In this document: one piece after another, positions 5,576 through 37,740 of the stretch
Layout of the letters: every line of letters begins with the position of its first letter
Numbering within the stretch: position 1 is the first letter of the stretch
Source of the DNA: Escherichia coli
GTDB lineage: Bacteria > Pseudomonadota > Gammaproteobacteria > Enterobacterales > Enterobacteriaceae
Assembly (NCBI RefSeq): GCF_048403405.1
Contig: NZ_CP183129.1
Length of the DNA stretch: 64,000 nucleotides
Reading direction: 5' to 3' (one strand)
The notes under the pieces: generated by a model
What the model was told of the DNA's origin: nothing
The model's input: the letters and a program-made list of their open reading frames with translations, nothing else
Database searches by the model: none
Position numbers and translations under genes: made by a program

Positions 5576-8369
5576 TATCCGGGTCGCTTTCAGCGCCGTT
5601 GACAGGCTGACCCGGCCTGCCGAAAACGCCCGCCGCCTGATGGGGCAGTTTGGTGACTCCATCCAGCGAACGCAGGGGGCGATCAAAAATCTCGAGCGTC
5701 AGGCGCGTTCATTTGAGCGCGCCCGTGACGCTGTCAGTAAAGCGGATGCTGGCATCGTGAAAGCACGACGCCAGCTTAACGCCCTTAATCAGTTACAACG
5801 CACGGGTACAGTGCTCAGCGAAAAACAACAAAAGCTGATGCAGCAGTTAAGCACCCGGCTTGAACGCCTGAATGAATCGCGCACACGGGAAATTCAGAAA
5901 ATGCGGGAGCTTGGCGGAGAGCTGAAACGCCACGGCATTTCCCTGACAGGCAGCGATAACACCATCCAGCAGGCCATCAGACGCACCGAACAGTACAACA
6001 ACCAGCTTGAACGCGAACGGCAGGCGCTTGCGCGTGTAACGCGGGCGCGTGAGCGGTATTCGCGCGCGCAGGAAACAGCGGGAAAACTGAAAACAGGTGG
6101 TGCGCTGGCAATTGGTGCGGCAGCGGCGGGCGGCTATGCTGCCGGGCGTTTTTTGCAGCCTGCGATCGGGTTCGGCAAAGAGATGTCCCGCGTTCAGGCA
6201 CTGACGCGAATCGACCAGAACAGCCCGCAGTTTAAGGCGCTGCGTGAGCAGGCGTTAAAACTTGGCTCTGAAACGCAGTTCACCGCAGGCGATGCCGCCA
6301 GTGGACAGGCATTTCTTGCAATGGCTGGCTTCACTCCGCAGGCCATTCAGGCTGCGCTTCCCGGCGTGCTGAGCATGGCAACGGCTGGCGGTATGGATCT
6401 CGGCGAGACGGCAGATATTGGCTCAAATATCCTGACGCAGTTCGGCCTTTCTGCTGACCAGATGGACCGGGTCGGTGACACACTCACCGCAGCGTTTACC
6501 CGTACCAACACTGACCTTCGCGCACTGGGCGAAACCATGAAATATGCAGGTCCGGTGGCGGGTAAGCTGGGAATATCGCTGGAGCAGGCCGCAGCGATGG
6601 CTGGCGTGCTGGCGAATATGGGCATCAGAGGGAGTGATGCCGGGACGGCAATGCGTGCCAGCCTGGCTCGTCTGGCATCACCGCCAAAGGCGGCGGCAGA
6701 AGCTCTGAAAGAGCTGGGCGTGTCCGTCTCGGATGCCGGGGGCAAAATGCGCCCGATGGAGGATGTGCTGGCCGACCTTTATAAAGCCACCCGTAAATAC
6801 GGGGAAGTTGACCGGGTATCGTTCTTTAAGGACATTGCCGGAGAAGAGGCTTTCACATCGTTTATGGCGCTCGTTGATGCAGCGGGTGACGGTTCCTTAC
6901 CCAAACTGAGAAAAGAACTTGAAGGCGCGCGCGGTGAGGCTGAACGCACAGCAAAGGTTATGGCCAACAACCTTGACGGCGATCTGAAATCACTCGGCAG
7001 TGCATGGGAAGGGTTGCGCATCCGCATTGCAGATCTGATTGACGGTCCGCTGCGTTCTGTCACGCAGTGGCTCACGCGGGTGGTCTCAAAAGTGACGGCA
7101 CTGGCGCAGGCCCATCCGGCACTGACGCGCCAGTTACTGATAGCGGGAGGTGCACTGCTGGCGACAACAGCAACGGTTGGTTCGTTGTCTCTGGTTATTG
7201 GGGTGCTTCACGGGAAGCTGGCTACGTTACGTCTCGGTTTTTCTCTCCTGACCGGATCAATGAATGCTGTCAGGGGCCTGCCAGCACTATGGGGAATGGT
7301 GACGGGTTCCGTTTCTTTACTGGGAGGCGCTATCGGGGCGCTGATCAGTCCGGTTGGTCTTATCGTGGCTGCGCTTGCCGGAGCTGCCGTTCTTATCTGG
7401 AAATACTGGGATCCCATCAGGGCATTTTTTGCCGGGGTGTTCAGCGGGATTATGGAAAGGCTGACCCCGTTGCGCGAAACCTTTGAACGGTTTGGTCCTG
7501 TTTTTGACGCAATCGGAAGCGGGATCAGCCAGGTGTTTAACTGGTTTAAATCGCTGCTGTCACCGATGGAGTCCAGCAAGGAAACGCTGGATAAATGTAC
7601 CAGTGCTGGCGAGATATTCGGTAACGTTCTTGGCGGTGCGTTACAGCTTGTTCTGACACCTGCAAAAATGCTACTGGATACGCTGGCGTGGATACTTGAA
7701 AAACTTGGCGTCCTTCCGGATGAAGCGGAAAAGGCGCGCAAGAAAATCGAAGACGCACAGCGTGCGGCCATTCTTCAGGACAAGGTTGCCTTGCTTCAGG
7801 GGGACCTTGCGAAAATCAATCCGCCGAAGCCTGTGGAAAATGGCAATGGCACCGGAGGTGATAAACCCAAAGACAACAAACCGCTCACAGACAGCAATAC
7901 CGGGACGCTACGCAGACTCAGCAAAATTGCTGATAACACAGGTAAGCTGGTTGATGAGACGAAAAAACGCATTGGCCCTGGCGATATTGTCTTTAAGAAC
8001 CTGCCCCGCGCACTTGCTGTTCGTGGGGAGTGGCAGGAGCGGAAGATTGCGCAGGTCAGTAAGCCTGCCCCCGCAATTAATATCACACCCGTAGTCCCGG
8101 CTCCGCTGCCTCCGGCGCTGGTCCCTGTTGTTGCGGCCAGCTCCCGCCCGGTGGCGGAGGCCATACGATCGCCAGTGGCATCAGTTCCTGCAGCTTCCCG
8201 TAATCGGGAGCCTGCTGTCTCCAGATTTGGCGGTGAAATTCATGTTCATCTGCATAACGTTGTTACGCAGAATCCCCGCGAACTGGCGAAACTGGTCGGT
8301 GAAATGGTCAGGGCAGAGATGGAACGGCGCGCCCGTGCCGGACGTGGCAGTTTTTACGATAAAGATTGA
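5553..8369 (+). CDS. T: Tail tape measure protein T
   Basis: 938 aa; coiled-coil-rich N-terminal part, Gly/Ala-rich hydrophobic middle; position after E/E'. Alternative start ATG at 5562. Confidence 0.85.
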   Translation: MQIMKTLDIRVAFSAVDRLTRPAENARRLMGQFGDSIQRTQGAIKNLERQARSFERARDAVSKADAGIVKARRQLNALNQLQRTGTVLSEKQQKLMQQLSTRLERLNESRTREIQKMRELGGELKRHGISLTGSDNTIQQAIRRTEQYNNQLERERQALARVTRARERYSRAQETAGKLKTGGALAIGAAAAGGYAAGRFLQPAIGFGKEMSRVQALTRIDQNSPQFKALREQALKLGSETQFTAGDAASGQAFLAMAGFTPQAIQAALPGVLSMATAGGMDLGETADIGSNILTQFGLSADQMDRVGDTLTAAFTRTNTDLRALGETMKYAGPVAGKLGISLEQAAAMAGVLANMGIRGSDAGTAMRASLARLASPPKAAAEALKELGVSVSDAGGKMRPMEDVLADLYKATRKYGEVDRVSFFKDIAGEEAFTSFMALVDAAGDGSLPKLRKELEGARGEAERTAKVMANNLDGDLKSLGSAWEGLRIRIADLIDGPLRSVTQWLTRVVSKVTALAQAHPALTRQLLIAGGALLATTATVGSLSLVIGVLHGKLATLRLGFSLLTGSMNAVRGLPALWGMVTGSVSLLGGAIGALISPVGLIVAALAGAAVLIWKYWDPIRAFFAGVFSGIMERLTPLRETFERFGPVFDAIGSGISQVFNWFKSLLSPMESSKETLDKCTSAGEIFGNVLGGALQLVLTPAKMLLDTLAWILEKLGVLPDEAEKARKKIEDAQRAAILQDKVALLQGDLAKINPPKPVENGNGTGGDKPKDNKPLTDSNTGTLRRLSKIADNTGKLVDETKKRIGPGDIVFKNLPRALAVRGEWQERKIAQVSKPAPAINITPVVPAPLPPALVPVVAASSRPVAEAIRSPVASVPAASRNREPAVSRFGGEIHVHLHNVVTQNPRELAKLVGEMVRAEMERRARAGRGSFYDKD

Positions 8370-28520: not shown

Positions 28521-31293
28521 TTCCACTGGTCAGGCCAGTCCTCAGCAGGTTTGCTTTGCGGCGGGCGCGTTCAGTGGTTTCTCTGATTCTCTGTGCGTGC
28601 TCTGCGTCACGAATGGCGCGCAGCATGTCAGAAAGCACGGTAACGGGTGTTTTCATGGTGTTCTGGACCTGCTGAAGTGTGGATGCCAGGCGTGCGGCGG
28701 CTTCGGGGTCTGATGCCCCGAGCTGTGCCAGATAGCTGGAGACCGGGTTATGGCGGATCTCCGTGCTGCTTACGCCGTGATTACGGCTCAGGCGCTGCCA
28801 GAGCTGCGTGATTCGGCTGTCCGGGCGGGCATCCGGTTTGCGTACAATTTCAAATCCCTGCGGTGCAATGATGCTGCCGTCAACGTACAGACTGCCGCCC
28901 CGTAACAGGTGCTGCATCTGTTGTTCACCGATATGCAGGCCGAGAGATTCAGCAGACTCCCGCCATTCTTTAGCGAGTAATTCGTGGTTATCAGGCAAAG
29001 GCCGCTGCTGTTTGCGGCTCTGTGTCCAGCTCTGCATTTCATCGCTGCTGTTTTTTGCCTGTTTGTCACGAAGCGAACGCATCAGCGCCCGGCGTTCGTG
29101 TCGTTTCAGTGAGCGCATCCATTCGTTCACTTCAACGCCGTTAGGGAGCTGCGGCCACGGTGCTGGCCGTTCTTCCGGCTGTTCTGTCCCGTTGTTGTCC
29201 GTTTCCTGTACACGGGGACAGTTATTGCCACGAGTCCAAGGGGCGGCAGGGCCGCCCTGAAGGTCAAAACCATTTTCGCGGGCGCTGTCTTCCGCTTCCG
29301 GTTTGCGTCTTACCAGCTTCCAGTTATCCGGATGCGTGCACACACGGGAGGATTCCCCGATGAGTGGTGACCAGATCCCGTAAATCTGTACGCTCTGTTC
29401 GCCGTAATCGTTCATCTCATCGGCGAGGTCGTAGGCGGTGCGAATCAGGTAGTCTTTGCGTGGAACAAGTACGCCGCCCTGTTTCTCTATGTAGGTGGCA
29501 AAACATCCGGCATCAGCGGCGGCAAGAACCGCATCCATTGCGTCATCCTTCAGCCGTTGCGGGCCTTCCGGGTTGCGTGCCATCTGGCTGGCAAGGCGGC
29601 GCAGTTCACGCCATACCTGGCGGGAGGGGATGCCAAAGAACTGGAACTGGCGGACCCGGTGAAGGCGCGCCCAGCCGATGGCGCGTTCCACGCTCTCGGC
29701 CATTGATTTTCCGGTTTCGTGGTCAACGCGTGGCTTGCCCGTTTTCGGGTCGATGCCATCCACGGCACGGCTGTCCAGGTTTTTCCCGATGTAGGTGGCG
29801 ATGTAGCTGGTCGGTGTGCCTTTTGAGCCGTCGACGTACTCCGCCTTAAAGCGTGGGGTAATATCATCACCCAGCTCGTGACGATCTTCCTGAATGGCAA
29901 TATCGCGGGTGTGGGACACAATAGTGTCGATTTCTTCCGGATGAGCAAAGACCATCATATGCCAGTGCACGGTGCCGTCATGGTGAGGCTCCACCGTGCG
30001 GATGCCATACCAGCGCAGGCCGTCGCGGTTCAGTTTCTTGCGGACCGCCGCAAAAAACGTGTTAACCAGGTAATCGCTGGAGTCGCGCATGGTGGCCCCG
30101 TTCCATTTGGGATTCGGATGACCGTTCTCTGTTGTGGCGTGGTATTTTGACGGGCAGGTGACAGTCAGAAACACCGCTCTGTCGCCACGGGCTTCGGCCA
30201 GAAGTTCCAGCCCCTTCATGGTGGCCATCATTTCTGCCTTACGGTGAACCGGGTTACTTACTCCCGCGTAATACACTGTCTCGAGATCAATCGTGAACCC
30301 ATCTTCGTTTTCCAGCATGAAACTTTTCAGGAAATCGCGTGTTTTCTCGCGCTGTGCGCGAAACTCGCTTAATGCGTCCTGGCTCAGATAGGGCGATGTT
30401 TTTCTGGAAACCAGACAGGCGGCGCGGAGTTGTTCTTCTCTCCACTCGCAACGTAACAGCCACAGTTTGCGTTTCCACCATTCCGCACAGGTCAGGCGAA
30501 GGATTGCGCCCGGCAGCAGCTCCGTGTCCGGTTCGTTCCTCCGGTCTTTATCTGTTGTCAGTGCGTCATAATGTGGAGGCATGATGTGCAGGTGTAACGC
30601 CATGCGGGCCAGCATCTGATACGCCTTCAGCGTTACATCCATGGTCAGTTCGCCATCGGTCGCGCCAAAGCCATCGCAGAGTTTTTCGAAGGTGCTGCTG
30701 AACATCGCCGCCGTCATGGTGGCCAGCGTCTGTATCTGGTGTTTGTTGAGCTGCGGCAGGTAAAGCAAATCGTCCAGGCGTTCGCGTCCGGCAAGGGAGC
30801 GATAACCAGGTGTCAGCCAGCGCCCGTCAGTGCGATCCAGACGTTCGAATATTTTGCGCAGGGTTCCGCGTGCATAGCGTTCCGCCTGCCAGGTCTTTTT
30901 GCCTTTCTGACGATCGGCTTCCTGCTTCTTGCGCAGGAAAGAGAGGTGGCGGCTCAGAGGTTCTCGCAGATAACCGGGAAGCGCCTTCAGTGTGGCAAAG
31001 GCACGGGCTACCGGGTCTTGTTCTGTTGCCCGGCGCTTACTGATGATGCTCTGTGCCAGCTTTTCACGCTGTCCGGCTTCCTCAAGGGATGCCATGAGTT
31101 TTTTACCCATGGCGGATTGTGCGAAAAAGGCTTCTTCCTTCGCTTCCTGTTCTTCCTGTGCCCTTTTGTCCGCCTCAAGGTAGTAACGGATGGCGCGTTG
31201 CAGGTCGGTTTCAGTTTCCTGCCTGCGCTCCGTAAATCTGGCCGGATCAATAGCTGGTCGTGGTTCATTCCAGCTCCATGCAAACGCACTCAT
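28453..31293 (-). CDS. A: Replication initiation protein A (rolling-circle HUH endonuclease)
   Basis: Long ORF with HWHMMVF HUH-like motif and P2 gpA-like region; start trimmed to MSAFAWS, abutting the upstream gene stop. Confidence 0.85.
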   Translation of the reverse strand: MSAFAWSWNEPRPAIDPARFTERRQETETDLQRAIRYYLEADKRAQEEQEAKEEAFFAQSAMGKKLMASLEEAGQREKLAQSIISKRRATEQDPVARAFATLKALPGYLREPLSRHLSFLRKKQEADRQKGKKTWQAERYARGTLRKIFERLDRTDGRWLTPGYRSLAGRERLDDLLYLPQLNKHQIQTLATMTAAMFSSTFEKLCDGFGATDGELTMDVTLKAYQMLARMALHLHIMPPHYDALTTDKDRRNEPDTELLPGAILRLTCAEWWKRKLWLLRCEWREEQLRAACLVSRKTSPYLSQDALSEFRAQREKTRDFLKSFMLENEDGFTIDLETVYYAGVSNPVHRKAEMMATMKGLELLAEARGDRAVFLTVTCPSKYHATTENGHPNPKWNGATMRDSSDYLVNTFFAAVRKKLNRDGLRWYGIRTVEPHHDGTVHWHMMVFAHPEEIDTIVSHTRDIAIQEDRHELGDDITPRFKAEYVDGSKGTPTSYIATYIGKNLDSRAVDGIDPKTGKPRVDHETGKSMAESVERAIGWARLHRVRQFQFFGIPSRQVWRELRRLASQMARNPEGPQRLKDDAMDAVLAAADAGCFATYIEKQGGVLVPRKDYLIRTAYDLADEMNDYGEQSVQIYGIWSPLIGESSRVCTHPDNWKLVRRKPEAEDSARENGFDLQGGPAAPWTRGNNCPRVQETDNNGTEQPEERPAPWPQLPNGVEVNEWMRSLKRHERRALMRSLRDKQAKNSSDEMQSWTQSRKQQRPLPDNHELLAKEWRESAESLGLHIGEQQMQHLLRGGSLYVDGSIIAPQGFEIVRKPDARPDSRITQLWQRLSRNHGVSSTEIRHNPVSSYLAQLGASDPEAAARLASTLQQVQNTMKTPVTVLSDMLRAIRDAEHAQRIRETTERARRKANLLRTGLTSGNKKQTETGFTNPVNEQKTRRDI

Positions 31294-34388: not shown

Positions 34389-34595
34389 TCACCCGATAAA
34401 CCAGATAACAAACGCTATAAACATCGCCCCAATAGCTGCCGGGAAAAGCCCTTTGGTATAAGCGGCGATATATTCAATGCTGAGTTCAATAAAGCGTTCT
34501 TCATGTCCCGTTAACTTACGAAACAAATAGATCGCTATTACGCCTATCTCAATAAAAACAAGGGTCAGAATGGCGCTGATGATATGGCTGGTCAT
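34389..34595 (-). CDS. Small membrane protein (two transmembrane helices)
   Basis: 68 aa, hydrophobic; immediately downstream of cox. Confidence 0.5.
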   Translation of the reverse strand: MTSHIISAILTLVFIEIGVIAIYLFRKLTGHEERFIELSIEYIAAYTKGLFPAAIGAMFIAFVIWFIG

Positions 34596-34889: not shown

Positions 34890-34954
34890 TGTGGTAATCT
34901 CCCTAATTCGTTCGAATGGCTCAAAATGGCTTATATCGGCTTATTTGAGTGTTT

Positions 34955-35010
34955 TTATGTTTGTGCCCGATGTGGCATGTTGCGATGGAGGATATGCCCG
35001 ATATGGCATC
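34955..35010. promoter_or_regulatory. Immunity switch region with direct-repeat operator candidates
   Basis: GTGCCCGATGTGGCATG and ATGCCCGATATGGCATC direct repeats about 32 bp apart between divergent cox and C (P2 C binds direct repeats). Confidence 0.4.
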
Positions 35011-35323
35011 TTTGTCAAGCATGGGTGAAAAATTTCGCCTGATTCGTGAAGCAGAAGGTATGACCCGCCAGGAGTTTGCGGATTGTGTTGGGCTGCCTTA
35101 TGGGACGGTAACTAACTATGAGGTGAGGGGGAAGCAAGTAACAGAGGGTGCCTTACTTAAGGTTACGAAACACCCTAAATTTAAGAAATATGCTTATTGG
35201 TTATCAACAGATGAAACGATGCCGGAGGTTGGGCAAATTTCTCCGGCTCTCTCTCTTGATGGTTCCTGCAATTCGGAGGGAGATCGTGTTTCAACCGAAA
35301 CAATCCAAAAATTATCCCGCTGA
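35003..35323 (+). CDS. C: Immunity repressor C (helix-turn-helix)
   Basis: ...MTRQEFADCVGLPYGTVTNYE... helix-turn-helix region as in P2 C; start ambiguous among 35003, 35021 or upstream Met codons. Confidence 0.8.
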   Translation: MASLSSMGEKFRLIREAEGMTRQEFADCVGLPYGTVTNYEVRGKQVTEGALLKVTKHPKFKKYAYWLSTDETMPEVGQISPALSLDGSCNSEGDRVSTETIQKLSR

Positions 35324-35419: not shown

Positions 35420-36424
35420 ATGTCGATTAAGAAGCTCGAAGATGGTCGTTATTTGCTGGACATCAGGCCGAACGGACGCAAGGGAAAGCGCGTGCGTAAG
35501 GTATTTGACAAAAAATCGGTAGCGGTGGCCACTGAACGCTACATCATGGCGAACGCTGAAAAGCGGGAATATATACAGGGCTACCGTGATCGTCGAACGC
35601 TAAATGATTTGCTTGAGTTGTGGTGGATGTATCACGGCCAGCACAGGCGTAAGGCAGAAGAAGACCGAAAACAACTGCGCAACATAATCAATGAGCTTGG
35701 CGCTGATATGCAGGCTGTGGATCTTGATAAGCTAAAAATTATCGCGTGGCGTTCTCAAAAGATAGCTGATGGATTGAAACCGTCATCTGCTAACAGATAC
35801 ATGAATCGGTTATCCGGAATGTTTACCGTACTGAAGAAAATAGGCCTCTGGGATGCAGAACATCCGGTAAGGGGAATTTCTATTCTTTATGTATCTCCAC
35901 GAGAAATGGCTTTCCTGTCCCAGAAGGAAGTGGCGTTATTGCTCGATACACTGGAGGGCGATTACTGGCGTGTTGCGCTTTTGTGTTTAAGCACGGGGGC
36001 GCGCTGGAGTGAAGCCTGTAAGCTTCGTGGTGAACAGATAGTTCATAACCGTGTAACGTTTCTTGAAACCAAAAATGGCCGAAAGAGAACAGTGCCAATT
36101 TCGCAGGCAGTTTGTGAGGCGATCAAAACCAGAGAAACAGGCGGCTTGTTTGAGGTGAAGTACCGGGAATTCTGCTTGGCGCTGAAAAGAGTTAAGCCCG
36201 ATTTGCCAAAAGGCCAGGCTGCACATGTGCTGCGGCATACGTTCGCCAGCCATTTTGTGATGAACGGAGGAAACATTATTGCGCTTCAGAAGATTCTTGG
36301 CCACGCAACCATTCAGCAAACAATGGCATATGCACATTTTGCACCGGATTACCTGCAGGATGCGGTGGCCCTTAATCCGCTGAAAGGTGGCGTGAGTGTC
36401 CACGCAGTGTCCACGGGGGATTAA
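35420..36424 (+). CDS. int: Tyrosine integrase (P2 Int-like)
   Basis: MSIKKLEDGRYLLDIRPNGRKGKRVRKVFDKK...LSTGARWSEA...HVLRHTFASHF...MAYAHFAPDYLQDA closely parallels P2 Int. Confidence 0.9.
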   Translation: MSIKKLEDGRYLLDIRPNGRKGKRVRKVFDKKSVAVATERYIMANAEKREYIQGYRDRRTLNDLLELWWMYHGQHRRKAEEDRKQLRNIINELGADMQAVDLDKLKIIAWRSQKIADGLKPSSANRYMNRLSGMFTVLKKIGLWDAEHPVRGISILYVSPREMAFLSQKEVALLLDTLEGDYWRVALLCLSTGARWSEACKLRGEQIVHNRVTFLETKNGRKRTVPISQAVCEAIKTRETGGLFEVKYREFCLALKRVKPDLPKGQAAHVLRHTFASHFVMNGGNIIALQKILGHATIQQTMAYAHFAPDYLQDAVALNPLKGGVSVHAVSTGD

Positions 36425-36582: not shown

Positions 36583-37740
36583 TTGTCAGAGACTGAAAAA
36601 TGGTTAAAAATCCTTGTTGATGAAAATATGCCTTATGCCCGCGACTTATTTAGCCGTTTGGGTGAGGTGACCGCGGTTCCCGGGCGTCCAATTCCCGTGG
36701 CTCAACTGGCAGACGCGGATGCGATGATGGTGCGTTCGGTCACGAAAGTGAATGAATCTTTGCTGGCAGGAAAACCCATTAAATTTGTTGGCACTGCCAC
36801 CGCGGGGACCGACCATGTCGATGAAGCGTGGTTAAAGCAGGCGGGAATTGGTTTTTCCGCGGCACCTGGCTGTAATGCGATTGCGGTGGTGGAATATGTT
36901 TTCTCCTCACTGCTGATGCTTGCCGAACGCGATGGATTTTCACTGCACGAGCGTACCGTGGGGATCGTGGGCGTTGGTAACGTTGGTCGCCGTTTACAGG
37001 CGCGACTGGAAGCGTTAGGGATTACAACCTTGCTTTGCGATCCGCCCCGCGCCGACCGTGGGGATGAGGGGGATTTCCGCTCGCTGGATGAATTAGTTCA
37101 GCATGCGGATATTCTGACTTTCCATACGCCACTCTTTAAAGATGGTCCGTACAAAACGCTGCATCTGGCGGATGAAAAACTGATCCGCAGCCTGAAGCCG
37201 GGAGCGATTCTGATTAACGCCTGCCGTGGCGCAGTTGTCGATAATACCGCCCTGCTGACCTGCCTGAACGAAGGCCAGAAGTTAAGCGTAGTGCTGGATG
37301 TCTGGGAAGGCGAACCGGAACTTAACGTGGAATTGCTGAAAAAAGTGGATATCGGCACGCCGCATATCGCAGGCTATACCCTGGAAGGTAAAGCACGCGG
37401 TACTACGCAAGTGTTTGAAGCTTATAGCAAGTTTATTGGGCATGAACAGCACGTTGCGCTGGATACATTACTGCCCGCGCCAGAGTTTGGTCGCATTACG
37501 CTGCATGGCCCGCTCGATCAGCCAACGCTGAAAAGGCTGGTGCATTTGGTGTATGATGTGCGCCGCGATGACGCACCGCTGCGTAAAGTCGCCGGGATAC
37601 CGGGTGAGTTCGATAAACTGCGCAAAAACTATCTTGAGCGCCGTGAATGGTCATCTCTGTATGTGATTTGTGATGACGCCAGCGCGGCATCATTGCTGTG
37701 TAAACTGGGTTTTAACGCCGTTCATCATCCGGCACGTTAA
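36583..37740 (+). CDS. pdxB: Erythronate-4-phosphate dehydrogenase
   Basis: Full-length match to E. coli PdxB pattern ([15 protein letters not shown]...); exact start codon uncertain. Confidence 0.9.

Follow-up and report, generated by a model that had tools for sequence, protein, structure and literature searches.

The interval between the divergent cox and C genes in a 64,000-nucleotide stretch of Escherichia coli DNA (contig NZ_CP183129.1; the whole stretch is referred to as the window) controls the choice between lysis and lysogeny in a common P2-like prophage of the Xuanwuvirus (P88-like) group, and represents a transcriptional switch of the P2 type. Two direct repeats in this interval are, judging from their sequence and placement, very probably the sites at which the immunity repressor C shuts off the lytic promoter. 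We assign a probability of roughly 0.8 to the whole explanation, i.e., that the repeats constitute the C operator over the early promoter Pe and that one symmetric C dimer occupies each of them. The explanation is carried by observations established directly here, namely the presence of the repeats and the lack of other close copies, the homologies of the genes, the agreement of Pe with the promoter consensus, the inheritance of the repeats together with C, their invariance within the immunity class and their dyad symmetry. At the level of sequence, the features that define a P2-type switch are all present, with the exception of a confidently placed rightward promoter Pc and with the Cox boxes at candidate level.

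Two direct repeats flank the -10 element of the predicted early promoter

Copy 1 (TGCCCGATGTGGCAT, 34964-34978) and copy 2 (TGCCCGATATGGCAT, 34995-35009), identified with a repeat finder, agree in 14/15 nt, with a start-to-start distance of 31 bp, and the match extends without gaps to 18 nt, with identity at 16/18. This is in agreement with the original prediction insofar as two direct repeats were proposed for this interval; however, the string quoted there comprises 15 nt and not 17, and the spacing, given as about 32 bp, is 31 bp when measured. A version of the 17/17 type, TATGCCCGAT.TGGCAT, is found in close relatives that have A in place of G34963. A degenerate search across the 64 kb returned no other copy with two or fewer mismatches, and the six matches with three mismatches correspond to the level seen in shuffled sequence.

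Short repeats present in two copies frequently arise by chance; however, a chance repeat, or a neutral local duplication without function, is scarcely credible in this case. A direct repeat as good as the observed one was reached in 0/300 shuffles of the 175-nt region, and repeat pairs are present at corresponding positions in most heteroimmune classes. Furthermore, among 15 members of the window class, the repeats are invariant while their neighbors vary (0/30 repeat positions versus 11/33 other positions in 34950-35012; Fisher p = 4e-4). The variation includes a 1-bp insertion between the two sites, which is tolerated. One locus of the same class (L021:1501-1817) has a 1-bp deletion in a G run, at approximately window position 35104, that frameshifts C; both sites are intact with a spacing of 32 bp, and the locus seems to reflect either prophage decay or an error in sequencing.

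The sole strong promoter in the region is TTGACA-18-TATCCT on the minus strand, with 10/12 matches in a consensus scan and 12.9 bits in a weight-matrix scan, where all other candidates on either strand score at most 7.8 bits. It points toward cox and is the counterpart of P2 Pe, and we take it as the predicted Pe, with transcription probably starting near 34982. Across 27 C classes, no element is better conserved than the corresponding -35, whose plus-strand sequence is TGTCAA; these classes are the usable ones among 29 at 85% identity, obtained by sorting 80 IMG/VR loci that encode C relatives together with the phages. In the 16-bp frame given in Table 1, the two repeats are referred to as sites 1 and 2. 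They flank the Pe -10 element, and site 2 occupies the spacer between -35 and -10.

The repeats are inherited together with C

Citrobacter phage Shae_phiSM and Escherichia phage Chuche encode Cox proteins that are 97% and 98% identical, respectively, to that of the window, and their int DNA is about 97% identical, but their C proteins share only 48% and 41% identity with the window C. Sliding nucleotide identity drops to about 47% only in 34949-35250 and amounts to 90-100% on either side, which outlines an exchangeable immunity cassette (Table 1). The limits of the cassette derive from 40-column identity bins and are accurate to a few tens of bases. Within the alignment, a scaffold consisting of TGTCAA, GGAG..AT and the ATG at 35003 is retained, and the repeat positions hold different sequences, which are again alike within each pair. 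The same Cox and Int are thus combined with another C and with other repeats, and the repeats therefore travel as a cassette with C, and not with Cox or Int. These natural chimeras, i.e., the window, Shae_phiSM and Chuche types, which share Cox and Int and carry different C-operator cassettes, constitute a panel for studying the co-evolution of repressor and operator.

The same comparison bears on the alternative that the repeats are bound by Cox, or by Int as arm-type sites, instead of by C. Both of these P2-like proteins recognize directly repeated short sequences (PMC3936717; PMC3448106), and TGTGGCAT in site 1 resembles the P2-type arm consensus tgTGGaCa. Nevertheless, binding of either protein to the repeats is highly improbable, and was ruled out by the mosaic comparison in combination with an arm-consensus search: entirely different repeats accompany the near-identical Cox and int of Shae_phiSM and Chuche, the arm consensus has no match to the repeats within one mismatch and instead identifies two copies of CGTGGACA at the int end, and the 10-bp units that resemble Cox boxes are separate from the repeats (34915-34944).

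Three loci that combine a Xuanwuvirus backbone with the same Cox and Int (L036:1177-1812, L038 and L057) encode C as a single protein of about 195-211 aa, an in-frame fusion of two C-type domains of which the first is of the Chuche type and the second of the Shae_phiSM type. Upstream of the fused gene there are Chuche-type sites only, TTTCTCAATTTAGAAA and TTTCTCACATGAGAAA, 24 bp apart. The fused protein may represent a single-chain repressor that confers dual immunity.

Comparison with mapped C operators

The C protein of the window matches the P2 C structures 2XCJ and 2L49 in a phmmer search (E 4.4e-16, residues 6-88), and shares 32% identity with P2 C, 40% with WPhi C and 75% with ev239 C. 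The divergent arrangement of cox and C, with int after C, is as in P2, which confirms this part of the original prediction. P2, P2 Hy dis and WPhi are the only phages whose C operators have been located by experiment, and the role of the P2 and WPhi repeats as operators is supported by operator-mutation reporter assays and electrophoretic mobility shift assays (PMC1904268). Comparison with the P2 and WPhi operator regions, for which the original prediction had named an alignment as a check, reveals the same geometry in the window, with sites that flank the Pe -10.

In P2, 8-bp repeats (ATCTAAAC) are located 22 bp apart and flank the -10 (PMC1904268); according to the P2 record, the -35 element TTGACA overlaps the C start, O1 lies in the Pe spacer, and O2 is positioned just past the -10. 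The window shares with P2 the switch architecture, the O1 and O2 positions, and homologous C and Cox proteins, but differs from it in that the P2 sites are two turns apart and consist of 8-bp repeats described as non-palindromic (PMC2995052). P2 Hy dis likewise has two direct repeats that are read by a C-family repressor (8 bp, 26 bp apart; PMC1904268); however, according to the published description these flank the -35 and, with 2.5 turns between them, face opposite sides of the helix, whereas the window sites flank the -10 and are three turns apart.

The closest counterpart is WPhi, where the 10-bp sequence GTCACCAATA occurs twice, 34 bp apart and flanking the -10 (PMC1904268), in places that correspond to those in the window: the first site falls within the Pe spacer and the second beyond the -10, the spacing is approximately three turns, and a TTGACA -35 element abuts the C start. 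The C-int and cox genes are also common to both, as are convergent promoters insofar as Pc is presumed for the window. The differences concern the sequence, the spacing (34 bp compared with 31 bp), the length of the unit (10 bp compared with 15-16 bp), and the position of the C start, which is inside the proximal site in the window and just beyond the -35 in WPhi.

Members of one immunity class have C proteins at least 95% identical and the same operator sequence; the low identity of C (32% and 40%) and the different operator sequences place the window outside the P2 and WPhi immunity classes. On these sequence grounds, the switch in the window is of a well-known kind, but its immunity class is undescribed, and its geometry is closest to that of WPhi, classes IV-X and Hy dis being outside the direct comparison. 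The ECO5-type C of UTI89/NU14 differs clearly (only a 75% match over 97 nt), and no paper was found in literature searches for the operator 15-mers or the N-terminus of C.

Both sites are 16-bp pseudo-palindromes

Site 2 is a 16-bp pseudo-palindrome, ATGCC-N6-GGCAT, in which 6/8 pairs are symmetric. Site 1 has 5/8 symmetric pairs, and 6/8 in the relatives with A at G34963; taken together, 11/16 pairs in the two window sites are symmetric (column-permutation p = 0.007). The arms of each site are one helical turn apart. In the PhiR44_2 variant, both sites have perfect 5-bp arms, compared with the window, where site 1 has G at 34963. The original prediction that the operators are direct rather than inverted repeats therefore holds with respect to the direct repeats, but is incomplete, since each unit also has internal dyad symmetry, and 'two tandem pseudo-palindromes' is the better description of the operator. 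The arm pattern TGCC-N6-GGCA has six matches in the window with 1.8 expected; two of them, in addition to those at the sites, are inside the prophage at 8336-8349 and 29754-29767.

Across the 27 classes, the mean symmetry of 16-mers anchored on the -35 peaks sharply at offsets -20 to -18 and -52 to -50. Symmetric 16-mers with at least 6/8 pairs occupy the proximal position in 11/27 classes and the distal position in 16/27, as compared with a background of 0.4% per 16-mer in flanking coding DNA; the binomial p-values of 1.6e-12 (proximal) and 2.7e-13 (distal) overstate independence, given the common descent of the C classes. In 22/27 classes, one or both positions hold such a site, and the commonest spacing is 31-32 bp. 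The sequences of the arms vary from class to class and yet remain complementary (TTTCTCATATGAGAAA, GGTATCAATTGAGACC, GTAGTTAATCAACTAC and ATACTCTCTAGAGTAT), as exemplified by ATGCC/GGCAT, TTTCTCA/TGAGAAA, GGTATCA/TGAGACC and GTAGTT/AACTAC. When the dyad rule was re-examined in nine further phages, the pattern was repeated in L-413C (TAACCTATATAGGTTC), SEN5 and a P88-type phage. The dyad of Pseudomonas phi3 is weak (3-4/8 in the 16-mer scan, and 5/8 only as a 17-mer counted by eye), and YpM_22 is a re-sampling of the WPhi-type operator. The proximal WPhi site is also pseudo-palindromic (GTCACCAATAGGTTAC, 6/8 pairs); its distal site is not (3/8 pairs in register), in contrast to the window, where both sites are symmetric.

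Palindromes at these positions could, in principle, act as RNA hairpins that influence translation or stability in the Pc or Pe leader, instead of as protein-binding DNA. A stem of 4-5 bp is possible for each site, and pairing between the two sites, around the Shine-Dalgarno sequence, is possible in the Pc leader. We give this possibility almost no weight, as the folding energies are no better than those of shuffled sequences (z = -0.66 for the Pc leader and -1.42 for the Pe leader), the register of the sites relative to the -35 and -10 elements of the DNA does not change from class to class, and the homologous repeats in P2 and WPhi are operators by the assays cited above.

P2 C is a symmetric dimer with its recognition elements placed for two consecutive major grooves, and the operators that it reads are described as non-palindromic direct repeats (PMC2995052). 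Dyad symmetry within each repeat suggests that one symmetric C dimer binds per site, which departs from the non-palindromic picture of P2. The serious alternative to symmetric contact is that C operators are read in the manner published for P2, where one helix of the dimer would make specific contacts and the other would sit non-specifically on flanking DNA, so that the symmetry is incidental (PMC2995052). The published model, in which only one helix per dimer makes specific contacts, favors this alternative, as do the partial symmetry of the window sites (5-6/8 pairs), the 3/8 pairs in register of the distal WPhi site, and the classes nearest P2 (Kp4845-1, pro483, YpM_117 and S164), where no clear 16-bp palindromes were found, so that the dyad rule is not universal. 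However, the approximately 100-fold enrichment of symmetric 16-mers, exactly at the two operator positions in 27 classes, speaks against it; the arm sequences change between classes while the symmetry is kept, and arms one turn apart suit a symmetric dimer. On balance, we consider the P2-style mode of reading unlikely.

Several observations weigh against the proposed explanation: the one-helix model for P2 and the palindrome-free classes nearest to it, the moderate symmetry of the window sites, the shared descent of the classes on which the enrichment was computed, and the polymorphism, within the window class, of the outermost site positions 34963 and 34994. Furthermore, the weight-matrix scan does not place Pc with confidence, and all functional steps for the window class rest on analogy and comparative sequence.

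S164 deserves separate mention. In this Escherichia phage of a Peduovirus class (L091:369-396), perfect 6-bp inverted arms, TGTCGC...GCGACA, with 16 bp between them span the Pe -10, and its Pe region has neither direct repeats nor 16-bp palindromes.

A more general reading is that, in much of the P2 C-repressor family, the 'non-palindromic' half-sites are 16-bp pseudo-palindromes that each bind one symmetric dimer, with two of them placed about three turns apart over Pe, and that in P2 each 8-bp repeat may represent the better preserved half of such a site in degenerate form; we regard the odds on this as about even. The P2 16-mers in the family register have 6/8 and 5/8 symmetric pairs, which hints at cryptic symmetry in the P2 operators but does not establish it. 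In the literature examined, no mention was found of internal symmetry in P2-family operators. The symmetry of the sites bears on a question left by the P2 C crystal structure, namely how a symmetric dimer is to be reconciled with 'direct repeats'; if true, the pseudo-palindrome reading would largely dissolve this puzzle, and the window class would provide a clean system for testing it.

The start of C lies inside site 2

The original prediction noted that the second repeat overlaps the first possible start of C, and had suggested that the true start may be the downstream Met, which corresponds to 35021. The open reading frame offers ATG codons at 34985, 34994, 35003 and 35021, and a TTG at 35012. 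Our comparison favors 35003: the equivalent ATG, 11 nt upstream of GTCAA, is common to nine heteroimmune classes, most of which have no ATG at the position of 35021 (Shae_phiSM has CTT there). The start of WP_001390705.1 in RefSeq, set by the Prokaryotic Genome Annotation Pipeline (PGAP), is also 35003, and the downstream Met was rejected on these two grounds. A GAG/GGAG-rich motif (consensus 'gAgnAT') is present at the position of the putative Shine-Dalgarno sequence (Table 1) in most of the 27 classes. In the record of PhiR44_2, C starts upstream, at the equivalent of 34985; this ATG was likewise rejected, as it lacks a Shine-Dalgarno sequence and is missing in Chuche and in the loci L022, L037 and L074.

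The lone mismatch between the 15-mers (A in site 2, G in site 1) creates the ATG at 35003. In this family, the placement of the C start codon within the promoter-proximal operator is a conserved design and not an anomaly, and as a family trait it provides no grounds for shifting the start of C downstream.

Proposed organization of the switch

In the proposed switch, Pe would act as a strong promoter that transcribes leftward into cox. One symmetric C dimer would occupy each 16-bp site, and the two dimers, located on the same face of the helix at a distance of 31 bp, i.e., three turns, would bind cooperatively and keep RNA polymerase off Pe, thereby maintaining lysogeny and class-specific immunity. 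C, starting at the ATG inside site 2, would be expressed from a weak rightward Pc, and C and int are presumably co-transcribed from this promoter, as in P2. Cox, in turn, would repress Pc via the three 10-bp units that overlap the Pc region. The binding of C to the repeats, its stoichiometry and its cooperativity are predictions from the sequence and from analogy with related repressors.

Such analogies extend beyond P2-like phages, since P2 C superposes on P22 c2 and resembles C.Esp1396I (PMC2995052). The operator of the C.Esp1396I controller protein and OR1-OR2 of lambda, 434 and P22 consist, like the predicted operator in the window, of repeated pseudo-palindromes, with one dimer per site and cooperative binding over a promoter, which for the window would apply by inference. 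The spacing in the window is 31 bp, compared with 15 bp centre-to-centre for C.Esp1396I (PMC2995052). Another difference is that C and Cox in the window would use separate sites, whereas CI and Cro compete for shared operators; and at the level of family assignment made here, the window C is not homologous to CI.

The operator and promoter map is now concrete and testable for a class that is present in about 4% of complete E. coli genomes. Apart from this map, the natural chimeras and the symmetry of the sites, the window harbors an ordinary prophage switch.

Table 1 Features of the cox-C-int region and their positions in the window
Feature	Coordinates	Strand	Remarks
Exchangeable immunity cassette	34949..35250		Both sites, Pe and the N-terminal ~80 codons of C
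Candidate operator site 1, GTGCC-CGATGT-GGCAT	34963..34978		Equivalent of P2 O2, distal to C; ~+5 to +20 of predicted Pe
Candidate operator site 2, ATGCC-CGATAT-GGCAT	34994..35009		Equivalent of P2 O1, proximal to C; in Pe spacer, holds C start codon
Predicted Pe -35, TTGACA	35013..35018	-	Consensus scan; annotated as Pe -35 in P2
Predicted Pe -10, TATCCT	34989..34994	-	Consensus scan
C immunity repressor gene, 106 aa, helix-turn-helix	35003..35323	+	P2 C homologue (PDB 2XCJ/2L49)
Putative Shine-Dalgarno sequence for C, GGAGG	34987..34991	+	Read from sequence; 11 nt upstream of ATG 35003; opposite strand to Pe -10
cox, 95 aa	34889..34602	-	Matches 4LHF (structure of P2 Cox), E 3.5e-26, and Phage_Cox (PF10743, Pfam), E 1.3e-22
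Three tandem 10-bp units, AATGGCTCAA / AATGGCTTAT / ATCGGCTTAT	34915..34944	+	Candidate Cox boxes over presumed Pc
Possible Pc -10, TATATC	34932..34937	+	Analogy with P2; uncertain
int	35420..36424	+	Pfam Int_N and Phage_integrase; PGAP coordinates; follows C

Cox, candidate Cox boxes and Pc

By homology, the cox product is the lytic-side repressor and excision factor, and the early operon would begin with cox; the PGAP name for the product at an identical locus in E. coli is 'Cox family DNA-binding protein'. The intergenic region between cox and C measures 113 bp, compared with 114 bp in P2. It contains three tandem 10-bp units that share phasing and orientation with the P2 units TGCGTTTAA, TGTCTTATAA and TGCCTTTTAG; these P2 units correspond, as reverse complements, to the cox-box consensus TTAAA(G/C)NC(A/C) with its 10-11 bp phasing (PMC3936717). 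The units are kept in Shae_phiSM and Chuche, whose Cox proteins are 97-98% identical to that of the window. They are weak on window statistics alone (10 matches to TGGCTYAW in the window, 9 expected), and Tandem Repeats Finder returned nothing for the units at 34915-34944. On the basis of their phasing, orientation and conservation, we regard these units as candidate Cox boxes.

The candidate Pc -10 element, TATATC, lies in the second 10-bp unit, at the place of the annotated P2 Pc -10, TATAAT, within TGTCTTATAATG. Its distance to the upstream TTCGAA corresponds to an atypical spacer of 15 bp. The weight-matrix scan of the region detected no strong plus-strand promoter, the best alternative being CTTATA-17-TTTTAT (34930/34953; 7.4 bits). 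Pc probably lies somewhere within 34905-34962.

Directly downstream of cox, on the minus strand, there is a hydrophobic open reading frame of 68 aa (34389-34595), the position of which corresponds to that of P2 orf78. No Pfam family matches it, and its annotation in relatives does not go beyond 'hypothetical'.

Prophage and genomic setting

The prophage takes up the whole left part of the window (1-36580) and is inserted upstream of host pdxB, which begins at 36583. From position 1 onward, it shares 95-97% identity with Xuanwuvirus genomes, the DNA beyond the switch, down to position 1, being Xuanwuvirus structural DNA, and the second prophage junction is located beyond position 1. The distance from the end of int, which encodes a tyrosine integrase, to pdxB is 159 bp. 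A comparison of the int-pdxB junction with the remainder of the window found no att direct repeat of at least 14 nt.

The switch region, including both repeats, is 99-100% identical in Escherichia phage PhiR44_2 (PV340564) and Xuanwuvirus P884B11 (NC_049391), the records of which annotate genes only, without operator or promoter. At 95% identity or more, the switch is present in approximately 216 of 5426 complete E. coli genomes; every copy is chromosomal, and strain CRE1540 carries it at the same pdxB site. The two CGTGGACA copies are located 11 bp apart on the minus strand at the 3' end of int (36397-36415) and match the P2-type Int arm-site consensus quoted in PMC3448106; they are likely to be arm-type Int sites of the attachment region.

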